From the IMG/VR virus record IMGVR_UViG_2541047695_000006: a stretch of 10,524 nt of DNA; one strand, 5' to 3'. This document shows, piece by piece, positions 1 through 10,280 of the stretch. Under the pieces are notes generated by a model. The model was not told the origin of the DNA and did no database searches. It saw only the letters and a list, made by a program, of their open reading frames with translations. This DNA comes from a virus. Taxonomy: Duplodnaviria > Heunggongvirae > Uroviricota > Caudoviricetes. How positions within the stretch are numbered: position 1 is the stretch's first letter; every line of letters starts with the position of its first letter. Made by a program: the position numbers and the translations under genes.

Positions 1-1242
1 ATGGCACGAAAAACCACCCCACTAACTATTACGGAGATCAAAAACGCACGACCAGGGGAAAAGGAATATACCCTGCAGGATGGCGGAGGATTATTTCTTC
101 TGGTGAAGCCCTCCGGATCAAAAATCTGGCGTTTTACGTACTACCGTCCGGCAGATAAAAAACGGACTATTATCAGCCTTGGATCGCTAAATGATGTTTC
201 CCTGTCTGATGCCAGAGAGCGACGGAATGAATACAGGTCACTCATAGCAAAGGGAACTGACCCACAGGACTACGAACGCCGGAAACGTGAAGCAGAGAGC
301 AGGAAAAAGGGCAACACGTTCGAAAAAGTTGCCTTGGACTGGTACGAGATGAAAAAAGGCCAGAATCTGGCTTACAACACGATTAAGGATATCTGGCGAT
401 CCCTGGAAAAATACGTATTCCCGTACATCGGAAACACGCCAATAGATACCCTCACCGCTCGCCGCTTTGTTGAGATACTCACACCCATTAAAGCACGCGG
501 CAACCTGGAAACTCTGAAACGCGTTTTACAACGCATCAATGAAGTGATGGATTTTGCTGCCAACAGTGGGCTGATTGACATCAACACCGCCGCGAACGTC
601 CGCAAGGCATTCCCTTCCCCCACTAAAAAGCATATGCCAACCATCCGACCGGAACAGCTACCGCAGCTAATGCACGATTTATCGGTCGCCAGCATAGAAC
701 GGCAAACCAGATTGCTAATCGAGTGGCAACTGCTGACCGTAGCACGCCCAGCCGAAGCAGCCGCCGCACGCTGGGAAGAAATAGATCTCGATGCCGAAAC
801 ATGGACGATTCCAGCCGGACGCATGAAGATGCGCCGTGACCATGTGATCCCTCTTTGCGGTCAGGCGATGGCTGTACTGGAAACAATGAAGCCAATCAGC
901 GCACACAGGGAACATGTTTTTCCCAGCCTTAAAAATCCAATGCTGCCAATGAGCAGCCAGACCGCTAACGCTGCATTGCGCCGGATGGGATACGCTGGTG
1001 TGCTGGTGTCTCACGGATTACGCGCCATATTCAGTACAGCAGCGAACGAGGAAGGATTCGAGCCGGACGTAATCGAGGCCGCACTCGCACACGTGGACAC
1101 GAACGAGGTAAGGCGAGCATATAACCGAAGTAACTACCTGGAAAAACGTGTAGTACTTATGCGCTGGTGGGGTGAATTTGTGGAAGCCGCAGCAACCGGA
1201 GTGACCATAGCCAGTGGTAAAAGGGGTATCCGTGCGGTGTAA
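1..1242 (+). CDS. int: Tyrosine recombinase / site-specific integrase, P4-like family
   Basis: 413-aa ORF. N-terminal arm-binding-type domain (LTITEIKNARPGEKEYTLQDGGGLFLLVKPSGSKIWRFTY), C-terminal catalytic region with HGLRAIFST and a Tyr in RRAYNRSNY. The ATG sits exactly at the window start, so the upstream RBS is not visible. Confidence 0.9.
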   Translation: MARKTTPLTITEIKNARPGEKEYTLQDGGGLFLLVKPSGSKIWRFTYYRPADKKRTIISLGSLNDVSLSDARERRNEYRSLIAKGTDPQDYERRKREAESRKKGNTFEKVALDWYEMKKGQNLAYNTIKDIWRSLEKYVFPYIGNTPIDTLTARRFVEILTPIKARGNLETLKRVLQRINEVMDFAANSGLIDINTAANVRKAFPSPTKKHMPTIRPEQLPQLMHDLSVASIERQTRLLIEWQLLTVARPAEAAAARWEEIDLDAETWTIPAGRMKMRRDHVIPLCGQAMAVLETMKPISAHREHVFPSLKNPMLPMSSQTANAALRRMGYAGVLVSHGLRAIFSTAANEEGFEPDVIEAALAHVDTNEVRRAYNRSNYLEKRVVLMRWWGEFVEAAATGVTIASGKRGIRAV

Positions 1243-3788: not shown

Positions 3789-5191
3789 AACTGGCACCGA
3801 ACGTAAAACTGTTACCGAAAGATAAACACACTGAGGCGGTTATTTTTGCGGGTGATAATGCTCACTCCTTTGCAGAACATTACATGATTGCACAGGCCAA
3901 AAAAGCAGGCGATCCCATCCCTCCGGTTTACCTGGGCCGTTATCAGTTAAGCGAACTGGACAACCTGCAGATTGTTGATGAGGGGCGATACAGGGTAACG
4001 GTGATACGCGCCGGAAATATTGACGAAGCGCAGCTGTTAACCATAGCGACAAAACTGGCGATCGCCGGAGTCCAGGAAGCGCGGCTGCTTTCTGAAAACT
4101 TCGAATTACTGGAGAAATGGACCGACCAGCTTCCACGGCTACGGGAGACATGGGAGAGAGGGGAAAGCCTGATCATGAACGGAGGAAAACAAAAAATCAC
4201 GCTACCGATTTCATGGGGTTCTGAGGGATTCGACGCGCAGCAAAGCTACGTAATTAAGGGGCTTATTCCGGCTGAATCATTATGCAGCACCTACGGGGCC
4301 AGCGGTTCTTATAAATCGTTCCTGGCTATTTCCTGGTCGTGCCATGTTGCCACAGGTATGGCATGGGGAGGCCGCAGGGTAAGTAAGGGCGCGGTTATCT
4401 ATATCGCTGGCGAAGGCAGTATGGGCGTAAAACGCCGCGTTAAGGCGTGGGAGATAACCCACGACAAGGTGGTTACGGATTTGTGCATCGTTAACGCGCC
4501 TGTCTTCCCTGCATCGCCTGACTATGTGGAGCAGGTTATCAGGACCGCCGGATTAGTGCAGGACAGAACGGGCGAAAGGGTGCGGATGATTGTCATTGAC
4601 ACGCTGGCCCGTTGCTTTGGTGGTCATGATGAAAATGACTCCCGCGACATGGGGGCGTTTATCCAGGGGTGTGACGCGATAAAGCAGGCCACGGGGGCCA
4701 CGGTTCTGGTTGTGCATCATTCCGGCAAGGATGAGACGAAAGGGGCGCGGGGTTCCAGTGCATTCCGTGCGGCGCTTGATGCTGAGTTCCGAATCAGTCG
4801 GGAACATTCAGAGGCTACGGCGCTGGTTGCAGCATGTACGAAGATGAAGGACGCGGAGGAGCCAAAAGAAAGCGCCTACGACCTTAAGAGCGTGGAGGTA
4901 TTTACGGATCCTGAGGGTGAAGAAATCGTGTCCATGGTGGTGATTGACGTTCCCCGCGCCCCTGCTGAACTGGAGCGCATAGAGGAGGCCGGGAACAAGA
5001 CGGAAAATCACACGGCTTTATGGGGTTGTATCCGGTCACGTATACAGCATGGTGATAAATGCACGATCCCGCTGCTACGTGATGACATGAAAAAGCTGGG
5101 ATATGACACAAAACACCTTAAACGATGGTTAGCCAAACTGGAAAAAGACGGCGTGATTTGCGTCGATGGGGATGATGTTCACCCACTGTAA
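3785..5191 (+). CDS. Replication initiator / helicase-like protein (RecA/DnaB-like ATPase, PICI pri-rep-like)
   Basis: 468-aa ORF with a P-loop-like GASGSYKS, a Walker-B-like MIVIDTLARCF and VLVVHHSGKDETKGARGSSAF. AGGGGGT RBS. Directly followed by an iteron array. Confidence 0.8.
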   Translation: MKLAPNVKLLPKDKHTEAVIFAGDNAHSFAEHYMIAQAKKAGDPIPPVYLGRYQLSELDNLQIVDEGRYRVTVIRAGNIDEAQLLTIATKLAIAGVQEARLLSENFELLEKWTDQLPRLRETWERGESLIMNGGKQKITLPISWGSEGFDAQQSYVIKGLIPAESLCSTYGASGSYKSFLAISWSCHVATGMAWGGRRVSKGAVIYIAGEGSMGVKRRVKAWEITHDKVVTDLCIVNAPVFPASPDYVEQVIRTAGLVQDRTGERVRMIVIDTLARCFGGHDENDSRDMGAFIQGCDAIKQATGATVLVVHHSGKDETKGARGSSAFRAALDAEFRISREHSEATALVAACTKMKDAEEPKESAYDLKSVEVFTDPEGEEIVSMVVIDVPRAPAELERIEEAGNKTENHTALWGCIRSRIQHGDKCTIPLLRDDMKKLGYDTKHLKRWLAKLEKDGVICVDGDDVHPL

Positions 5192-6280: not shown

Positions 6281-7321
6281 ATGGTTGATTTATATTCGCC
6301 TACACAGCTTGTGCAGGTGGCTAATGCTGAAGATGTGCAAAAAAAACTAAATGCGTTGTTTACCAGTTTGTTTTTCACTCGCTCGGTAATGTTTGAATCG
6401 AGAGACATTATTCTTGATACGATCGACGATCCAAATATCCCGATCGCGGCGTTTTGCTCTCCTATGGTGGGCAGTAAAGTTTCACGAGATGAGGGATACG
6501 AATCAAAAACAATTCGCCCAGGCTATATGAAACCGAAAAGCAGTATTGATCCAAATAAGTTAGCTGTGCGCCCTGCTGGTGTATCACCTGAACAATACAA
6601 TGCTTTTGGAGCGCGTAATATTAAAGTTAAACAGGCGATTGTAAATCAGGCTAAAGCTATACGTGCACGTATTGAATGGCTTGCTGTTCAGGCAATCACA
6701 ACGGGGAAAAATATCATTGAGGGCGATGGTATTGAACGTTATGAACTGGACTGGAATATAAAACCACAAAATATTATCACGCAGTCTGGCGGTGCTGAGT
6801 GGTCAGGTAAGGATAAAGAAACTTTTGATCCAAATGATGATATTGAGAGCTACGCAGAATTTAGTGAGGGCGTCACTAATATCATCATTATGGGCGGTAA
6901 TGTATGGAAGAAATACCGTTCATTCAGAGCGATAAAAGAGGCTCTGGATACCCGTCGTGGTTCTAATTCCGAACTGGAAACGGCCCTTAAAGACCTTGGT
7001 GATTCGGTGAGTTTTAAAGGGTATATGGGCGATGTTGCGATTGTTGTTTACAGCGGACGTTATACCGACGAGGACGGAACTGAAAAACATTTCCTTGATC
7101 CTGATTTGATGGTGCTTGGCAATACGGCTCTTCAGGGGATTGTCGCCTATGGCGGTATTCAGGATCCGGAGCTAATCCGAATGGGGCTGACTAAAGCCGA
7201 ACTTGCACCGAAAAACTATATTGTGCCTGGTGATCCGGCTATTGAGTACATACAAACGCACTCTGCACCACAGCCAATACCGGCCCGCATCAATCGTTTT
7301 GTTACCGTTCGCATTGGCTAA
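6281..7321 (+). CDS. Major capsid protein, lambda gpE-like family
   Basis: Collinear similarity to lambda gpE, for example NIITQSGGAEWSGKDKETFDPNDDIESYA and DTRRGSNSELETALKDLGDSVSFKGYMGDVAIVVYSGRY. AGAGG RBS at 6-nt spacing. An alternative start at 6275 (MSM...) matches the lambda N-terminus. Confidence 0.9.
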   Translation: MVDLYSPTQLVQVANAEDVQKKLNALFTSLFFTRSVMFESRDIILDTIDDPNIPIAAFCSPMVGSKVSRDEGYESKTIRPGYMKPKSSIDPNKLAVRPAGVSPEQYNAFGARNIKVKQAIVNQAKAIRARIEWLAVQAITTGKNIIEGDGIERYELDWNIKPQNIITQSGGAEWSGKDKETFDPNDDIESYAEFSEGVTNIIIMGGNVWKKYRSFRAIKEALDTRRGSNSELETALKDLGDSVSFKGYMGDVAIVVYSGRYTDEDGTEKHFLDPDLMVLGNTALQGIVAYGGIQDPELIRMGLTKAELAPKNYIVPGDPAIEYIQTHSAPQPIPARINRFVTVRIG

Positions 7322-7330
7322 GGGGGAGCA

Positions 7331-7672
7331 ATGGCTACTCATTACACTGAACTCATGTCTGGTACTGAAGCACTGGTTACTACGCTGGGGATATTTTCAG
7401 CCAATAAAGGGGTAATACCTGCGTTTACGCCACTGATGCAGGAAGATGCAACTGGTGCGCTAGTGGTATGGGATGGAACGAGCGCAGGCAAAGCGGTTTA
7501 TGTTTCCGCTGTACAAATCGACACAGCGAAAAAAACACAGGCACAGGTTTATAAGACAGGTGTTTTAAATGTTGATGCTCTGAACTGGCCTGAGTCTGTA
7601 AGAGAACTGTCGGCAAAGGTTGCCGCGTTTGTTGGCTCAGGTATTTCTGTTCAGCCGCTGGCTCGTGTGTAA
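7331..7672 (+). CDS. Head decoration protein, lambda gpD-like
   Basis: 113-aa ORF with gpD-like motifs PAFTPLM, VVWDGT, YKTGxxxxDALNWPE and AFVGSGISV. GGGGGAG RBS. Confidence 0.8.
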   Translation: MATHYTELMSGTEALVTTLGIFSANKGVIPAFTPLMQEDATGALVVWDGTSAGKAVYVSAVQIDTAKKTQAQVYKTGVLNVDALNWPESVRELSAKVAAFVGSGISVQPLARV

Positions 7673-7683
7673 AGGGGGATACA

Positions 7684-8067
7684 ATGCAGAATCATTACAA
7701 TGACCTTAAGCCAATTGCCGAAATGATGTATCCGGATCCAGCAGTAGAGGAATTAAAGGCTATTGCTGACAAAATGCGTTTAAGTGAACGCCTTGTTGAT
7801 ATGAATCAGGTGATGGAACTTACTACCCTTAGCCGTCGCACATTGCTAAACCTTGAGGCTCGTGGAGAGTTCCCCGAACGCGTACAGGTTACGGAAGGGC
7901 GTAAGGCCTGGTATTTAAGTGAAGTGATCGACTGGATAAACAATATTCCTCGAGCTTCTGAATATTGCCGCGTACCTGTCCCCAAAAAGCCAGATGCGGC
8001 GCTATGCCTCAAGATTGAGCGTGTACGTCGCAATGCACGGGATGGTCGCTATAAGTTGATTGGTTGA
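7684..8067 (+). CDS. AlpA/MerR-like HTH DNA-binding protein (127 aa) immediately upstream of cos
   Basis: HTH segment LTTLSRRTLLNLEARGEFPERVQVTEGRKAWYLSEVIDWINN. AGGGGGA RBS. About 40 N-terminal residues have no recognisable signature. Confidence 0.65.
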   Translation: MQNHYNDLKPIAEMMYPDPAVEELKAIADKMRLSERLVDMNQVMELTTLSRRTLLNLEARGEFPERVQVTEGRKAWYLSEVIDWINNIPRASEYCRVPVPKKPDAALCLKIERVRRNARDGRYKLIG

Positions 8068-8120
8068 TGAAATTAGGGCCCGTTCTGGCTGGCGGGTCCT
8101 TTCCGGCGATCCGGCAGGCT

Positions 8121-8241
8121 ACGGGGCGGCGACCTTGCGGATTTTCGCTATTTATGAGCCTTTTCGGGTTGGTGGTGGTGGTTTTGTTTTTCGCTCTATC
8201 TCTATGAATAAAAAGGGAAAGATAACACCAACACACCAACC
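8121..8241 (+). other. Lambda-like cohesive end site: cosN (12-nt cohesive-end sequence at 8124-8135) plus cosB-like repeats
   Basis: GGGCGGCGACCT at 8124-8135 and the following about 35 nt closely match the lambda left-end sequence as recalled. Downstream are GGTTGGTGGTGGTGG (8167-8181), an A/T-rich tract, and a tandem ACACCAAC x2 (8225-8240) in inverted orientation, ending about 30 bp before the Nu1-like start. Confidence 0.7.
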
Positions 8242-8268
8242 TGAAACCTTAACTAAGTGGGGATATTG

Positions 8269-8811
8269 ATGAAATCGCACCTGATGAACAAAAAAACTAT
8301 GGCGCAAAGCTGCCGCGTAAGTGCGACAGCGTTCGACAAGTGGGGAGTAACTCCCGTTGAGCGTAAAGGCCGTGAGGCGTTTTATGATGTTGCTAGCGTG
8401 ATAGACAATAGGGTTAACAATGCAATTAACCAGCTTACAAACGACAAAGGCGAGATTGATGATGATGAACTTTTACGCGTAAGAATCAGATTAATGACGG
8501 CCCAGGCGGAAGCGCAGGAACTTAAAAACGAGCGCGAACGCGGCGAGGTGATTGATACAAAGTTTTGCATCTACGCGATTTCAAAACTAGCGAGTCAGAT
8601 TTCATCAATCATGGACAGCCTCCCGCTCACAATGCAAAGGCGCTTTCCCGATATAAGGCCGTATATGCTGGATGAACTAAAAAGGGAAATAGCCAAAGCA
8701 TGTAACGCATGTGCAAGACTTGACGAAAACCTGCCACAGATACTGGCTGATTACCTGATGGAAACTACCGGAAACGCGCCTGAGAAGTTGCTACAGAACA
8801 AAGGCGAGTAA
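8269..8811 (+). CDS. Terminase small subunit, lambda Nu1-like
   Basis: About 180 aa, collinear with lambda Nu1: N-terminal winged-HTH region (NKK...FYDVASVI) and TAQAEAQELKNERERGEVIDTKFCIYAISKLASQISSIMDSLPLTMQRRFPD. The start at 8269 has a GGGGA RBS; the track ORF begins at an upstream GTG (8257). Confidence 0.85.
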   Translation: MKSHLMNKKTMAQSCRVSATAFDKWGVTPVERKGREAFYDVASVIDNRVNNAINQLTNDKGEIDDDELLRVRIRLMTAQAEAQELKNERERGEVIDTKFCIYAISKLASQISSIMDSLPLTMQRRFPDIRPYMLDELKREIAKACNACARLDENLPQILADYLMETTGNAPEKLLQNKGE

Positions 8812-8884
8812 CCGCCGCCCCGTAACGGGCCATAATTCCAGGAAGGACCCGACGACACCAGGCTATCGGAACGATGAGGGCACA

Positions 8885-9166
8885 ATGACTGAAGCCGAAC
8901 TACTGGGATTAATCCGCCGCGTCGTCGGAATCAGCCAGCAGCATGACGAACAGGCCACACAGCCGGACAGCGTGACCGCTGAAAATTATGTGCGTGTTGT
9001 TGCTGAGGTGATGCGCCGTGATGGTATTGAGCTTAACGGCGTGGATATGCGCAACATACGAACAAGAGTCCTTGAGTTGCTGGCATACCGTCGCCGTTCT
9101 CAACAACGGAGGGAGAGCGCGAAAAATACTTACCAGTGGAAGAAGCCGGAACGGTTGCGGCGGTAG
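8885..9166 (+). CDS. Hypothetical protein (93 aa) downstream of terS; not a large-terminase homologue
   Basis: ORF with a GAGGG RBS at 6-nt spacing. No similarity to lambda gpA recognised. Confidence 0.45.
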   Translation: MTEAELLGLIRRVVGISQQHDEQATQPDSVTAENYVRVVAEVMRRDGIELNGVDMRNIRTRVLELLAYRRRSQQRRESAKNTYQWKKPERLRR

Positions 9167-9573
9167 ATTCCTGATATTCAGGAAAACCACGAATCTGTGG
9201 GGTTTACTGGCGCGGTTACGGCGGTGACACGCACCGAGGCAGAACAATTACCGTAGGTTAAAGCGACAGTATTCACACCAAAGGCAGAAATTAGCGGTTA
9301 ACGTAACTGACTGATATTTTCGGGAACAGCCAACGGCTGAGGCCGGAGCTATAAAAATAGCTTTGGGTACAGTCCTCAGTTTTGAGGGATGTTAACCAAC
9401 TGAATAATAAGCAAACCTCAAAATTGAGTTTTGTATCTGCCTGAGTTATTTCTGTGCTAACTTGCTGATATTCCCGATAACGTAAAATTGCGTTGGCTGG
9501 CAGAGTGCAAATTTGCACGATGGCCTAACCCATTGATTGTTTCGGAAACCTCAATTTGAGGAGGCCGGACAGC

Positions 9574-9608
9574 GTGACGGAGGGTGACAACCAGTGACAC
9601 GCCGTGAC
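9574..9608 (+). repeat. Four direct GTGAC repeats at exact 10-bp periodicity
   Basis: GTGAC at 9574, 9584, 9594 and 9604. The 9-mer GTGACACGC also occurs at 9224-9232 and 9594-9602. Confidence 0.55.
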
Positions 9609-10062
9609 AAAAAGACGGTTTAACCATCCATTAAAAATCGACGTGATTTTGTGCTTTCCGTATGAGGTGGCCAGCGTCATTTTTTAGTGAGAAATTCTGG
9701 TCAGGGGCGTTGGCTGAATGGTTATTTTATCGTGCCCATGCACAGGGAGGGGGCGGGTAAAATCTCTGGAGGTGATGCCTGTCAGGACCGCCGCCTGACC
9801 CTTCCTCACATCGCCGCAGGTTCGAAAACTTTTTTTGTGTCAGGTGCGCACGGAATTGATAGGTAAAACCTATATTAAAAAATCACGGAAGCCGCGCCAT
9901 TGCTGGATCAGTCAAAAATTCCACATCTCACGGCAGGCAAAAAAAGCGAATTTTGGGCCAGTTGAGGATAAAAAAGGGCTCACTAGTTTTGCACATCCTG
10001 GTATCGGGGTCGTCAGCCTCCCGCCAGTAACCAGGTAACTAATCACGCTGGTGGGCATGATG

Positions 10063-10090: not shown

Positions 10091-10280
10091 TCTGTGATCA
10101 TCCACCAGCTTGATGACAGATAACAGGGAGTCATAACGATTAAAATTGTATATTTTTGCAGCAAACATTTTTAGCTACACGCTAAGCTATACGATTTTGA
10201 GTTTAAATTTTTTGTATTCAATTAAATCAAATGGTTATATGCACGTTTTGAATACTCTCGTGGACCAAAAATCCCAAGAA

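Follow-up and report, generated by a model that had tools for sequence, protein, structure and literature searches.

A lambda-type cos core joined to a private cosB beside terS: a probable packaging site in an Escherichia coli phage-inducible chromosomal island

Satellite P4 depends on the complete terminase of its helper phage and on a cos site identical to that of the helper. Other cos-type satellites are also packaged by a helper terminase, SaPIbov5, a Staphylococcus aureus pathogenicity island (SaPI), using the complete enzyme and a helper-identical recognition site (PMC6092414), and pac-type phage-inducible chromosomal islands (PICIs) belonging to the SaPI type, such as SaPIbov1, supply a small terminase (TerS) of altered DNA specificity that pairs with the large terminase (TerL) of the helper (PMC10530653). 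Genes for virulence, resistance and defence against phages are spread by PICIs at high frequency. In E. coli, the only PICI packaging mechanism worked out is the Rpp adaptor of EcCICFT073, whose cos1 site joins a phage-like cosQ and cosN to a different cosB, read by a complex of Rpp with phage TerS (PMC6092414, PMC6739421, PMC9026076), and is experimentally required for lambda- and phi80-mediated transfer (PMC6092414, PMC6739421). PICI cos sites with conserved cosQ/cosN and a private cosB, as well as E. coli PICIs that encode TerS, have thus already been published (PMC6092414, PMC6739421, PMC9026076, PMC10085698). Here, we analysed IMG/VR virus record IMGVR_UViG_2541047695_000006, a stretch of 10,524 nucleotides referred to as the window, which by gene content, att repeats and synteny belongs to the EcCICFT073 family of PICIs, the element being about 10.26 kb long. 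We consider it probable that its region 8092-8243 is a packaging site made of a lambda-like TerL half and a private cosB matched to the island's own TerS, which would recruit the TerL of a helper.

In EcCICFT073 (L006), rppA (144 aa, L006:17660-18094) fills the slot occupied by terS in the window, with cos1 just upstream. Because cos1 lies at the same position and is proven to be needed, the cos of the window is the positional equivalent of a validated PICI packaging site. An earlier reading of the sequence, referred to as the initial annotation, had proposed that the element is a packaging substrate of a lambdoid terminase, which is what would be expected by analogy with this sibling. The features of the region are the following.

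8094-8100, plus strand: cosQ (GGGTCCT), packaging-termination subsite; identical to lambda cosQ, at lambda's 30-nt spacing to cosN bp 1.
8124-8135, plus strand: cosN, predicted 12-nt cohesive end GGGCGGCGACCT; 12/12 identical to the annotated cos of a lambda-derived record and to EcCICFT073 cos1 and cos2.
8136-8166, plus strand: I2-like segment, CGCTATTTATGA...TTTTC, between cosN and cosB; 25/31 identical to lambda.
8167-8189, plus strand: R3-like putative TerS-binding site GGTTGGTGGTGGTGGTTTTGTTT, with its core GGTGGTGGTTT at 8174-8184 (cos bp 51-61).
8190-8224, no strand: A/T-rich spacer at the position of IHF site I1; 69% A+T (51% in the window as a whole); Monarch-type prophages have a colinear spacer.
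8225-8243, minus strand: R2-like inverted putative TerS site, ACACCAAC x2, reverse complement CAGGTTGGTGTGTTGGTGT; aligns to the inverted R2 ACAACAACC of AF14 and L015.
8269-8811, plus strand: terS, Nu1-family small terminase of 180 aa with an ATG start; Pfam PF07471, E = 8.6e-24, 84.4 bits against a cut-off of 30.
8813-8850, minus strand: remnant of a second, inverted cos site (cos2) directly after the terS stop; what is left is cosQ (8850-8844) and 8 nt from the start of cosN (8820-8813).

The 12-mer GGGCGGCGACCT has a single exact match in the window, at cosN on the plus strand, where about 0.001 would be expected by chance in 2 x 10.5 kb (an estimate). Upstream of it, 28 of 32 positions (8092-8123) match lambda; downstream, 29 of 35 do (8136-8170), with 25 of 31 in 8136-8166. 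The initial annotation had proposed near-identity to lambda for the 12-mer and about 35 following nucleotides; this was borne out, and the similarity is in fact wider, extending upstream to 8092 and including cosQ. Alignment to lambdoid cos regions in a collection of 2.3 Gb of phage DNA gave, for the block from 8092/8093 to 8170, 88.5% identity over 78 nt to phage DE3 (lambda-derived, cos annotated) and 89.9% over 79 nt to other lambdoid coliphages (E = 2e-21). Beyond this block the window was matched by no record in the collection, and from 8171 on the alignment shows no similarity to lambda cosB. No variation in cosQ was seen among the islands of E. coli, Enterobacteriaceae and Citrobacter or in the AF14 prophage; the I2 core CGCTATTTATGAG is likewise constant across the islands and the N15/Monarch-type phages, and the core CGCTATTTATGA in all relatives. 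Because cosQ, cosN and the I2-like segment are conserved in both sequence and spacing, 8092-8170 is a lambda-type cos core, in which the top strand would be nicked 5' of 8124 and the bottom strand after 8135. The island shares with lambda identical cosQ and cosN, an I2 of about 80% identity, the same spacings and subsite order, and a Nu1 homologue downstream. It differs in that the lambda R sequences, CGTTTCC(T/G)TTCT, are unrelated to its own, in lacking R1, a match to the IHF consensus and gpA, in starting terS at bp 146 rather than bp 191, and in being a 10-kb satellite.

In place of lambda cosB, the window carries GGTTGGTGGTGGTGGTTTT (8167-8185) and an inverted ACACCAAC x2 (8225-8240). The former starts with GGTTGGTG at 8167-8174 and continues into (GGT)n to 8182; the latter is a perfect tandem (TRF), and CACCAACC at 8234-8241 is the exact inverted copy of GGTTGGTG, with 13-nt arms (8162-8174 and 8234-8246) that are 92% complementary. 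Both repeats lie where the initial annotation had placed them, and their motifs are unique to 8167-8241 within the window. An 8-nt inverted repeat in about 130 nt is expected about 0.1 times by chance (an estimate), i.e. is not beyond chance alone, so that its significance comes from comparison with relatives and not from the repeat by itself. In cos coordinates, the R3-like site spans bp 44-66 and the inverted R2-like site bp 102-120. The R3 segment aligns gap-free to GGTTGTTGTTT of the AF14 and L015 prophages and of N15 (bp 50-60), the island core GGTGGTGGTTT being GGTTGTTGTTT with two T-to-G changes; the island R2 (GGTTGGTGT on the R strand) is GGTTGTTGT with one T-to-G change, and CACCAACCTGAA in this region is kept in all six E. 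coli islands. The tract between the two sites, described at the outset as A/T-rich and bendable, is indeed A/T-rich. With up to two mismatches allowed, the IHF consensus WATCAANNNNTTR matches nowhere in the spacer of the window or of the O157 island; one-mismatch IHF sites occur at the equivalent position of lambda, AF14 and L043. R1 is missing because terS begins 25 nt past R2. As for the cosB-like layout as a whole, the arrangement is real and colinear with the R3-I1-R2 of N15/Monarch cosB, but it is not that of lambda, lacks R1 and has both R cores altered.

The Nu1-like start recognised in the initial annotation was confirmed (ATG at 8269). The encoded TerS is 37% identical to lambda Nu1 over residues 3-180, i.e. 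over its full length, including 16 of 41 positions in the segment aligned to the TerL-binding residues 141-181 of lambda. Its best phage match is N15 gp1 (48%), and the TerS of a Monarch-type prophage (AF14/L004, E. coli lambdoid) is 50% identical. A profile made only from island TerS sequences aligned with the lambda TerS DNA-binding domain in the PDB (6hn7_B, E = 0.0035; 1j9i, E = 0.8), while a phmmer search of TerS against the PDB gave nothing relevant and neither phmmer nor the island profile matched RppC. No BLASTP match to RppA was obtained, and hhalign gave a probability of 0.07%. An AlphaFold2 model computed from a 16-sequence alignment (pLDDT 52, low confidence), used for secondary structure only, predicts the order H-H-beta-beta-H, which would fit a winged helix-turn-helix (HTH). 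A scan with the TerS alignment of one genome per bacterial species (GTDB representatives) returned 33 related loci, ranging from Escherichia to Pseudomonas and Halomonas, and no islands; since all are terS-terL-portal, these are prophages. terL is thus immediately downstream in 33 of 33, whereas none follows the island terS, and a search of the window for a large terminase, a portal and Rpp (RppA by tblastn) found none. Because the island terS has no adjacent large terminase gene, we infer that TerL must come from a helper, giving a hybrid terminase of island TerS and helper TerL. Island-type TerS (at least 72% identity) is confined to E. coli and Shigella, and its next relatives (55-57%), found via the protein database, are in Enterobacter/Citrobacter islands with the same capsid-decoration-AlpA-cos-terS module. 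TerS of the E. coli islands also has a 12-aa C-terminal tail, absent from the Enterobacter/Citrobacter islands and from phages.

Where does the island cosB come from? It appears to derive from the R3-I1-R2-R1 cosB of N15/Monarch-type phages, recoded in its R cores and with R1 lost. The window aligns without gaps to Monarch-type prophages (AF14, L015) from cosQ through R2. N15 bp 48-60 reads GAGGTTGTTGTTT, the very segment to which mutagenesis has assigned R3-N15 (PMC9026076, which cites Feiss et al. 2015, PMC4669245). The R motif occurs three times, in the order R3, inverted R2, R1, in AF14, L010, L011 and L015, the complex cosB described as Monarch-type in PMC4669245. N15/Monarch phages thus share with the island the closest TerS (48-50%), an R3 core at bp 50-60 (51-61 in the island) and, for the Monarch type, a colinear R3-spacer-R2. 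They differ in their R core (GGTTGTTGT, against GGTGGTGGT at R3 and GGTTGGTGT at R2 of the island), in their recognition helix (S-V-Q-AFDKW against S-A-T-AFDKW), in having terL after terS, and in R1, which the island lacks.

The R core and the recognition helix of TerS change together. In 33 of 34 related prophages, GTTGTTGT lies upstream of terS, usually as aGGTTGGTTGTTGTTT and just past an I2-like CGCTATnTATGA...TTTTC block, and is paired with the helix VQAFDKW; since this set was fetched by a pattern containing the helix motif, the association is free of bias on its DNA side only. The helix (A/V)TAFDKW is paired with GGTGGTGG in 11 of 11 island loci (six E. coli and five Enterobacteriaceae or Citrobacter), and GGTGGTGG stands at the R3 position in all 11 of these against 0 of the 34 prophages. 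Written out, the helix is (I/V/L)-S-V-Q-A-F-D-K-W in prophages, V-S-A-T-A-F-D-K-W in E. coli islands and V-G-V-T-A-F-D-K-W in Enterobacter/Citrobacter islands. Thr20 is invariant in 16 island TerS sequences; its aligned counterpart in lambda is Arg17, with which recognition helix alpha2 begins (helix limits from PMC9026076). Tentatively, and as a proposal that may well not hold, we suggest that the TerS-type enterobacterial PICIs carry an orthogonal TerS/cosB pair descended from that of the N15/Monarch lineage through very few changes, namely Gln to Thr at helix position 1 and T to G in GGTTGTTGT, with the TerL-facing parts (cosQ, cosN, I2 and the TerS C-terminus) tracking local lambda-like helpers.

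The module appears to be maintained by selection. terS is intact, and among the islands the ratio of non-synonymous to synonymous substitution rates (dN/dS) is 0.10-0.21, with a dS of 0.45-0.6 among the E. coli islands. Across these, 12 of 12 positions are conserved in cosN, 20-21 of 23 in the R3 segment and 30-35 of 35 in the spacer, compared with 17 of 25 in the stretch from R2 to the ATG; conservation of cosN, of the R3 and R2 cores and of the spacer stands well clear of the terS dS background. Within TerS, the DNA-binding domain is 92-96% conserved among the E. coli islands against 63-73% for the region equivalent to the TerL-binding segment, and the diverged C-terminal region may reflect adaptation to different helper TerLs. 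Two Citrobacter islands (L046 and L047, around 6850-6865) keep the island-type R3 GCAGGTGGTGGTGTTGTT and have cosN AGGCGGCAGCGT instead of GGGCGGCGACCT, indicating that cosN and cosB evolve independently. This swap, together with the contrast between the TerS domains, fits a modular site in which one half co-evolves with the island TerS and the other follows the TerL/cosN type of local helpers. Among 5,426 complete E. coli genomes, 767 carry the segment made of cosB and the terS 5' part (at least 84% identity), O157:H7 and O145:H28 genomes among them, whereas the RppA-type segment (cos1 plus rppA) is in 83. An earlier count of 965 was dropped because it took in Monarch-type prophages, and 767 is the number given by the cosB-plus-terS query. 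A derivative of Nissle 1917 (H139, NZ_CP035486, 2544976-2545255) carries a TerS-type cosB/terS segment at 90.7% identity.

A packaging cycle can be proposed as follows. Upon induction of a helper, the island would excise and replicate as concatemers. Island TerS dimers would occupy R3 and R2, perhaps with the A/T-rich spacer between them bent in the way modelled for lambda, and in doing so may discriminate the island site from phage cosB; the TerS C-terminus would then bring helper TerL to cosN. As cosQ-cosN-I2 is near-identical to that of lambda-like coliphages, this site could be nicked by the TerL of any resident or infecting lambda-type helper, leaving the 12-nt GGGCGGCGACCT as a 5' overhang. 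DNA would be packaged rightward, terS first, into helper-built heads, and packaging would end at the cosQ-cosN-I2 of a downstream copy once the head is full. From the packaging limits of lambda and the multimers that EcCICFT073 packages in full-sized capsids (PMC6092414), we estimate that four 10.26-kb units (41 kb) would fill a lambda-sized head. Such a scheme differs from that of SaPI-type PICIs, which are headful (pac) and have TerS of an unrelated family, the island being cos-type with a cutting site borrowed from the helper; it also differs from that of P4, SaPIbov5 and similar satellites in that the island has its own TerS and a divergent cosB.

Besides the one-sided sampling of the prophages, several points weigh against this reading. 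The association between helix and R core probably goes back to one or two evolutionary events and should not be counted as 45. The island R3 and R2 cores agree with each other at 9 of 13 positions, against 12 of 13 in Monarch-type phages (in a homology-based alignment), and their T-to-G changes fall at different positions. R1 is absent, terS starting 25 nt after R2, although N15 indicates that a full tripartite cosB is not obligatory (PMC4669245). With no match to the IHF consensus, the IHF-bent part of the model is an analogy only, and the TerS structural model is of low confidence. The N15-specific terminase packages lambda DNA despite its differing R3 (PMC4669245, PMC9026076), so that differences in R cores need not give discrimination. 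Inducing resident prophages brought about no transfer of the two TerS-encoding E. coli PICIs tested (strains IHE3034 and 18098; PMC6092414), though their TerS may differ from the one described here.

Three other explanations were considered. The cos could be functional while the island TerS acts as an Rpp-like adaptor, heterodimerising with helper TerS, retargeting the phage TerS-TerL to the island cosB and blocking phage packaging. terS does sit exactly in the slot held by rpp downstream of cos1 in the sibling EcCICFT073; Rpp has a TerS-like winged-HTH domain and acts via heterodimers with phage TerS (PMC6739421), and mixed dimers are conceivable, since lambda-family TerS proteins dimerise via their DNA-binding domain (PMC6739421, PMC9026076). 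However, the island TerS is full length and retains the segment aligned to the TerL-binding residues of lambda, whereas Rpp proteins are 30-40 residues shorter and appear to lack it (PMC9026076), and no relation of the island TerS to RppA or RppC was detected in the searches described above. We therefore regard this explanation as unlikely. Alternatively, the GGTGG/CACCAAC repeats could be operators through which TerS, or the AlpA-like protein encoded at 7684-8067, controls terS transcription, with packaging proceeding via cosQ-cosN-I2 and the helper's own proteins. The terS start codon follows the repeats at a distance of 25-100 nt, the gene upstream codes for a DNA-binding protein of the AlpA family, and plasmid-cloned EcCICFT073 cos sites show some transfer without their cognate factor (PMC6739421). 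Yet the repeats take the places of R3 and R2 in N15/Monarch cosB, down to the distance between cosN and R3, which is critical in lambda (PMC9026076), and they track the TerS helix type and not the upstream gene, as the O157, LTC201 and CFT073-type islands have an unrelated 137-aa protein there with the same cosB. In addition, a search for sigma-70-like promoters found none in 7600-9300, and altogether we hold an operator function to be very improbable.

Least probable, and in our view hardly credible, is that cos and terS are decaying remains of the head region of a lambdoid prophage and that packaging no longer makes use of the site. The island does hold phage-derived head genes, whose EcCICFT073 homologues have no known phenotype (PMC6092414), most of the second cos site is lost in the window, and the published transfer test of TerS-encoding PICIs was negative (PMC6092414). 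Decay is at odds with an intact terS under purifying selection at an island dS of up to 0.6, with non-coding cosN, R3 core, spacer and R2 core conserved well above background, with the recurrence of the module at several chromosomal sites, in other genera and in 767 E. coli genomes, and with intact integrase, replication genes and att repeats. A packaging site with a private cosB read by the island's own TerS remains, for us, the probable explanation.

Compared directly with EcCICFT073 and other Rpp-type PICIs, the island belongs to the same family, has the same gene order with cos just upstream of the rpp/terS slot, and likewise combines a cosQ-cosN-I2 conserved with lambda-like helpers and a private cosB. 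The cognate protein, in contrast, is a full-length Nu1-family TerS of 180 aa, to which the Rpp proteins (135-153 aa, a winged HTH with a coiled-coil) have no detectable similarity; a single R3 has been proposed for the Rpp type (PMC9026076), against R3 plus inverted R2 in the island; the R3 core is ACCACCACC in the Rpp type and GGTGGTGGT in the TerS-type island; and EcCICFT073 has a cos2 of which the window retains only a truncated remnant. We also observed, comparing EcCICFT073 cos1 (L006:17601-17621, bp 43-63) with window 8171-8182, that the proposed Rpp R3 core ACCACCACC (bp 55-63) is the reverse complement of GGTGGTGGT at a near-equal distance from cosN. It is a speculation that the Rpp-type R3 might be the same motif in the opposite orientation. 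Colinearity of the Rpp-type cos1 cosB (bp 43-101) with the TerS-type cosB was tried and gave z = 2.8 for the O157 island and 0.7 for the window against shuffles, and no homology is claimed.

The packaging strategy is expected in kind. What appears to be new is a TerS-type cosB with a putative specificity switch in the most common E. coli PICI type; in the literature searched (subscription-only papers lay outside its scope), no description was found of the TerS-type island cosB, of its N15/Monarch derivation or of a helix/R-core recoding. Although the Rpp adaptor is the mechanism that has been worked out, RppA-type segments are in 83 genomes and TerS-type segments in 767. If the island does combine a private cosB and its own TerS with a borrowed TerL, its helpers would be defined by a compatible TerL and cosN and not by TerS, and its potential for interference would be explained by competition for TerL. 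If the orthogonal pair is real, it would account for Rpp-free packaging in the PICI type most widespread in E. coli, present in about 14% of complete genomes, and would represent a natural, simple recognition code for lambda-family small terminases. The compact switch (Gln/Thr in the helix, T/G in the R core) could then be probed by a few point mutations, for example R3 GGTGGTGG to GGTTGTTG, and be used for orthogonal cosmid or PICI delivery vehicles.

The cos2 remnant reads gGGGTCCTtcctggaattatggcccgttacgGGGCGGCG on the minus strand, followed by the terS stop codon, and equals the cosQ side of the intact cos2 in L003 and L006. Relative to the intact cos2 of L003, L006, L008 and L009, the rest of cosN, I2 and cosB is deleted in the window. 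In related islands, two inverted cos sites flank terS or rpp (cos2 at L003:9910(-), L006:18309(-), L008:9910(-) and L009:9911(-)). The complete cos2 of these relatives carries phage-type R3-R2-R1 triple repeats of differing specificities: CAGATCC in L003 and L008, CATGTCGG in L009 (like the CFT073 prophage, L005:34745) and ATGTCCGG in EcCICFT073. A single island may therefore be open to two kinds of reader: its own TerS or Rpp, through cos1, and particular helper TerS proteins, directly through cos2. L008 (NZ_AP027156) has its entire cos1-terS-cos2 segment (8686-9971) turned round with respect to the other parts of the island, and its two cos sites have exchanged their cosQ-side flanks; this implies an inversion brought about by recombination between the inverted cos repeats of about 80 bp.

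The remaining annotated features of the element are given below.

1-1242, plus strand: island integrase at the left end of the element; Pfam Phage_integrase and Arm-DNA-bind_3; follows tRNA-Pro between yejM and yejO in NZ_CP025859.
1768-1974: AlpA regulator.
6281-7321, plus strand: lambda-E-like major capsid protein; Pfam Phage_cap_E, 2.7e-41; same operon as the decoration gene, upstream of cos.
7331-7672, plus strand: gpD-like decoration protein; Pfam HDPD, 4.6e-15.
7684-8067, plus strand: AlpA-family HTH protein of 127 aa, directly upstream of cos; Pfam Phage_AlpA, 1.4e-8; PDB 8c3t, E = 1.6e-10.
10168-10193, plus strand: att, right-end copy of a 26-nt direct repeat; 1 mismatch in the window copy, 0 expected by chance.

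The gene order is tyrosine integrase, AlpA, Icd-like, DUF4222, RepA-type helicase, single-stranded DNA-binding protein (SSB), major capsid, decoration, AlpA-family HTH, cos and terS, with RepA/AAA_25 and SSB forming the replication module; the int/AlpA/replicon/cos architecture is that of Gram-negative PICIs (PMC6092414, PMC10085698). DNA 99.2% identical to the window is found in several E. coli chromosomes, sited from tRNA-Pro/yejM to yejO, and in L001 the 26-nt direct repeat occurs at 3910 and 14291, a spacing of 10,381. The same module is found at several chromosomal sites (yejM/yejO, phoQ/icd and cspD/clpS) and in other genera. The capsid and decoration proteins are each 54% identical to c1499 and c1500 of EcCICFT073, in the same order, and the last gene of EcCICFT073 (c1504-like) is 78% identical to its window counterpart; the EcCICFT073 capsid and decoration homologues had no detectable phenotype (PMC6092414). 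In the island, these E-like and gpD-like genes come without portal, protease or scaffold.

An open reading frame (ORF) at 8060-8269 on the plus strand (69 aa, TTG start), which spans cosQ, cosN and cosB, was rejected as a gene, as it has in-frame stops in the O157, Enterobacteriaceae and Citrobacter islands. An ORF across cos is annotated as 'hypothetical protein' in some RefSeq genomes (L001:12183-12392, L008:9019-9177) and is probably spurious. In metagenome contigs of Enterobacteriaceae (L043-L045, 7559-14513), genes with FRG and DUF3892 domains come after the RepA-capsid-decoration-AlpA-cos-terS series, on the opposite strand, and beyond these lie a truncated E-like capsid gene, FI, head-tail and tail genes; it looks here as if the island had either inserted into a lambdoid prophage's head region or recombined with it. 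Between int and alpA, the window also contains tandem repeats of a 9-nt unit (AAACCATGC x3.8, 1252-1287) and of a 20-nt unit (AAAACAGTGAGTACCGTTTT x2, 1663-1702), which could be regulatory or att-proximal sites.

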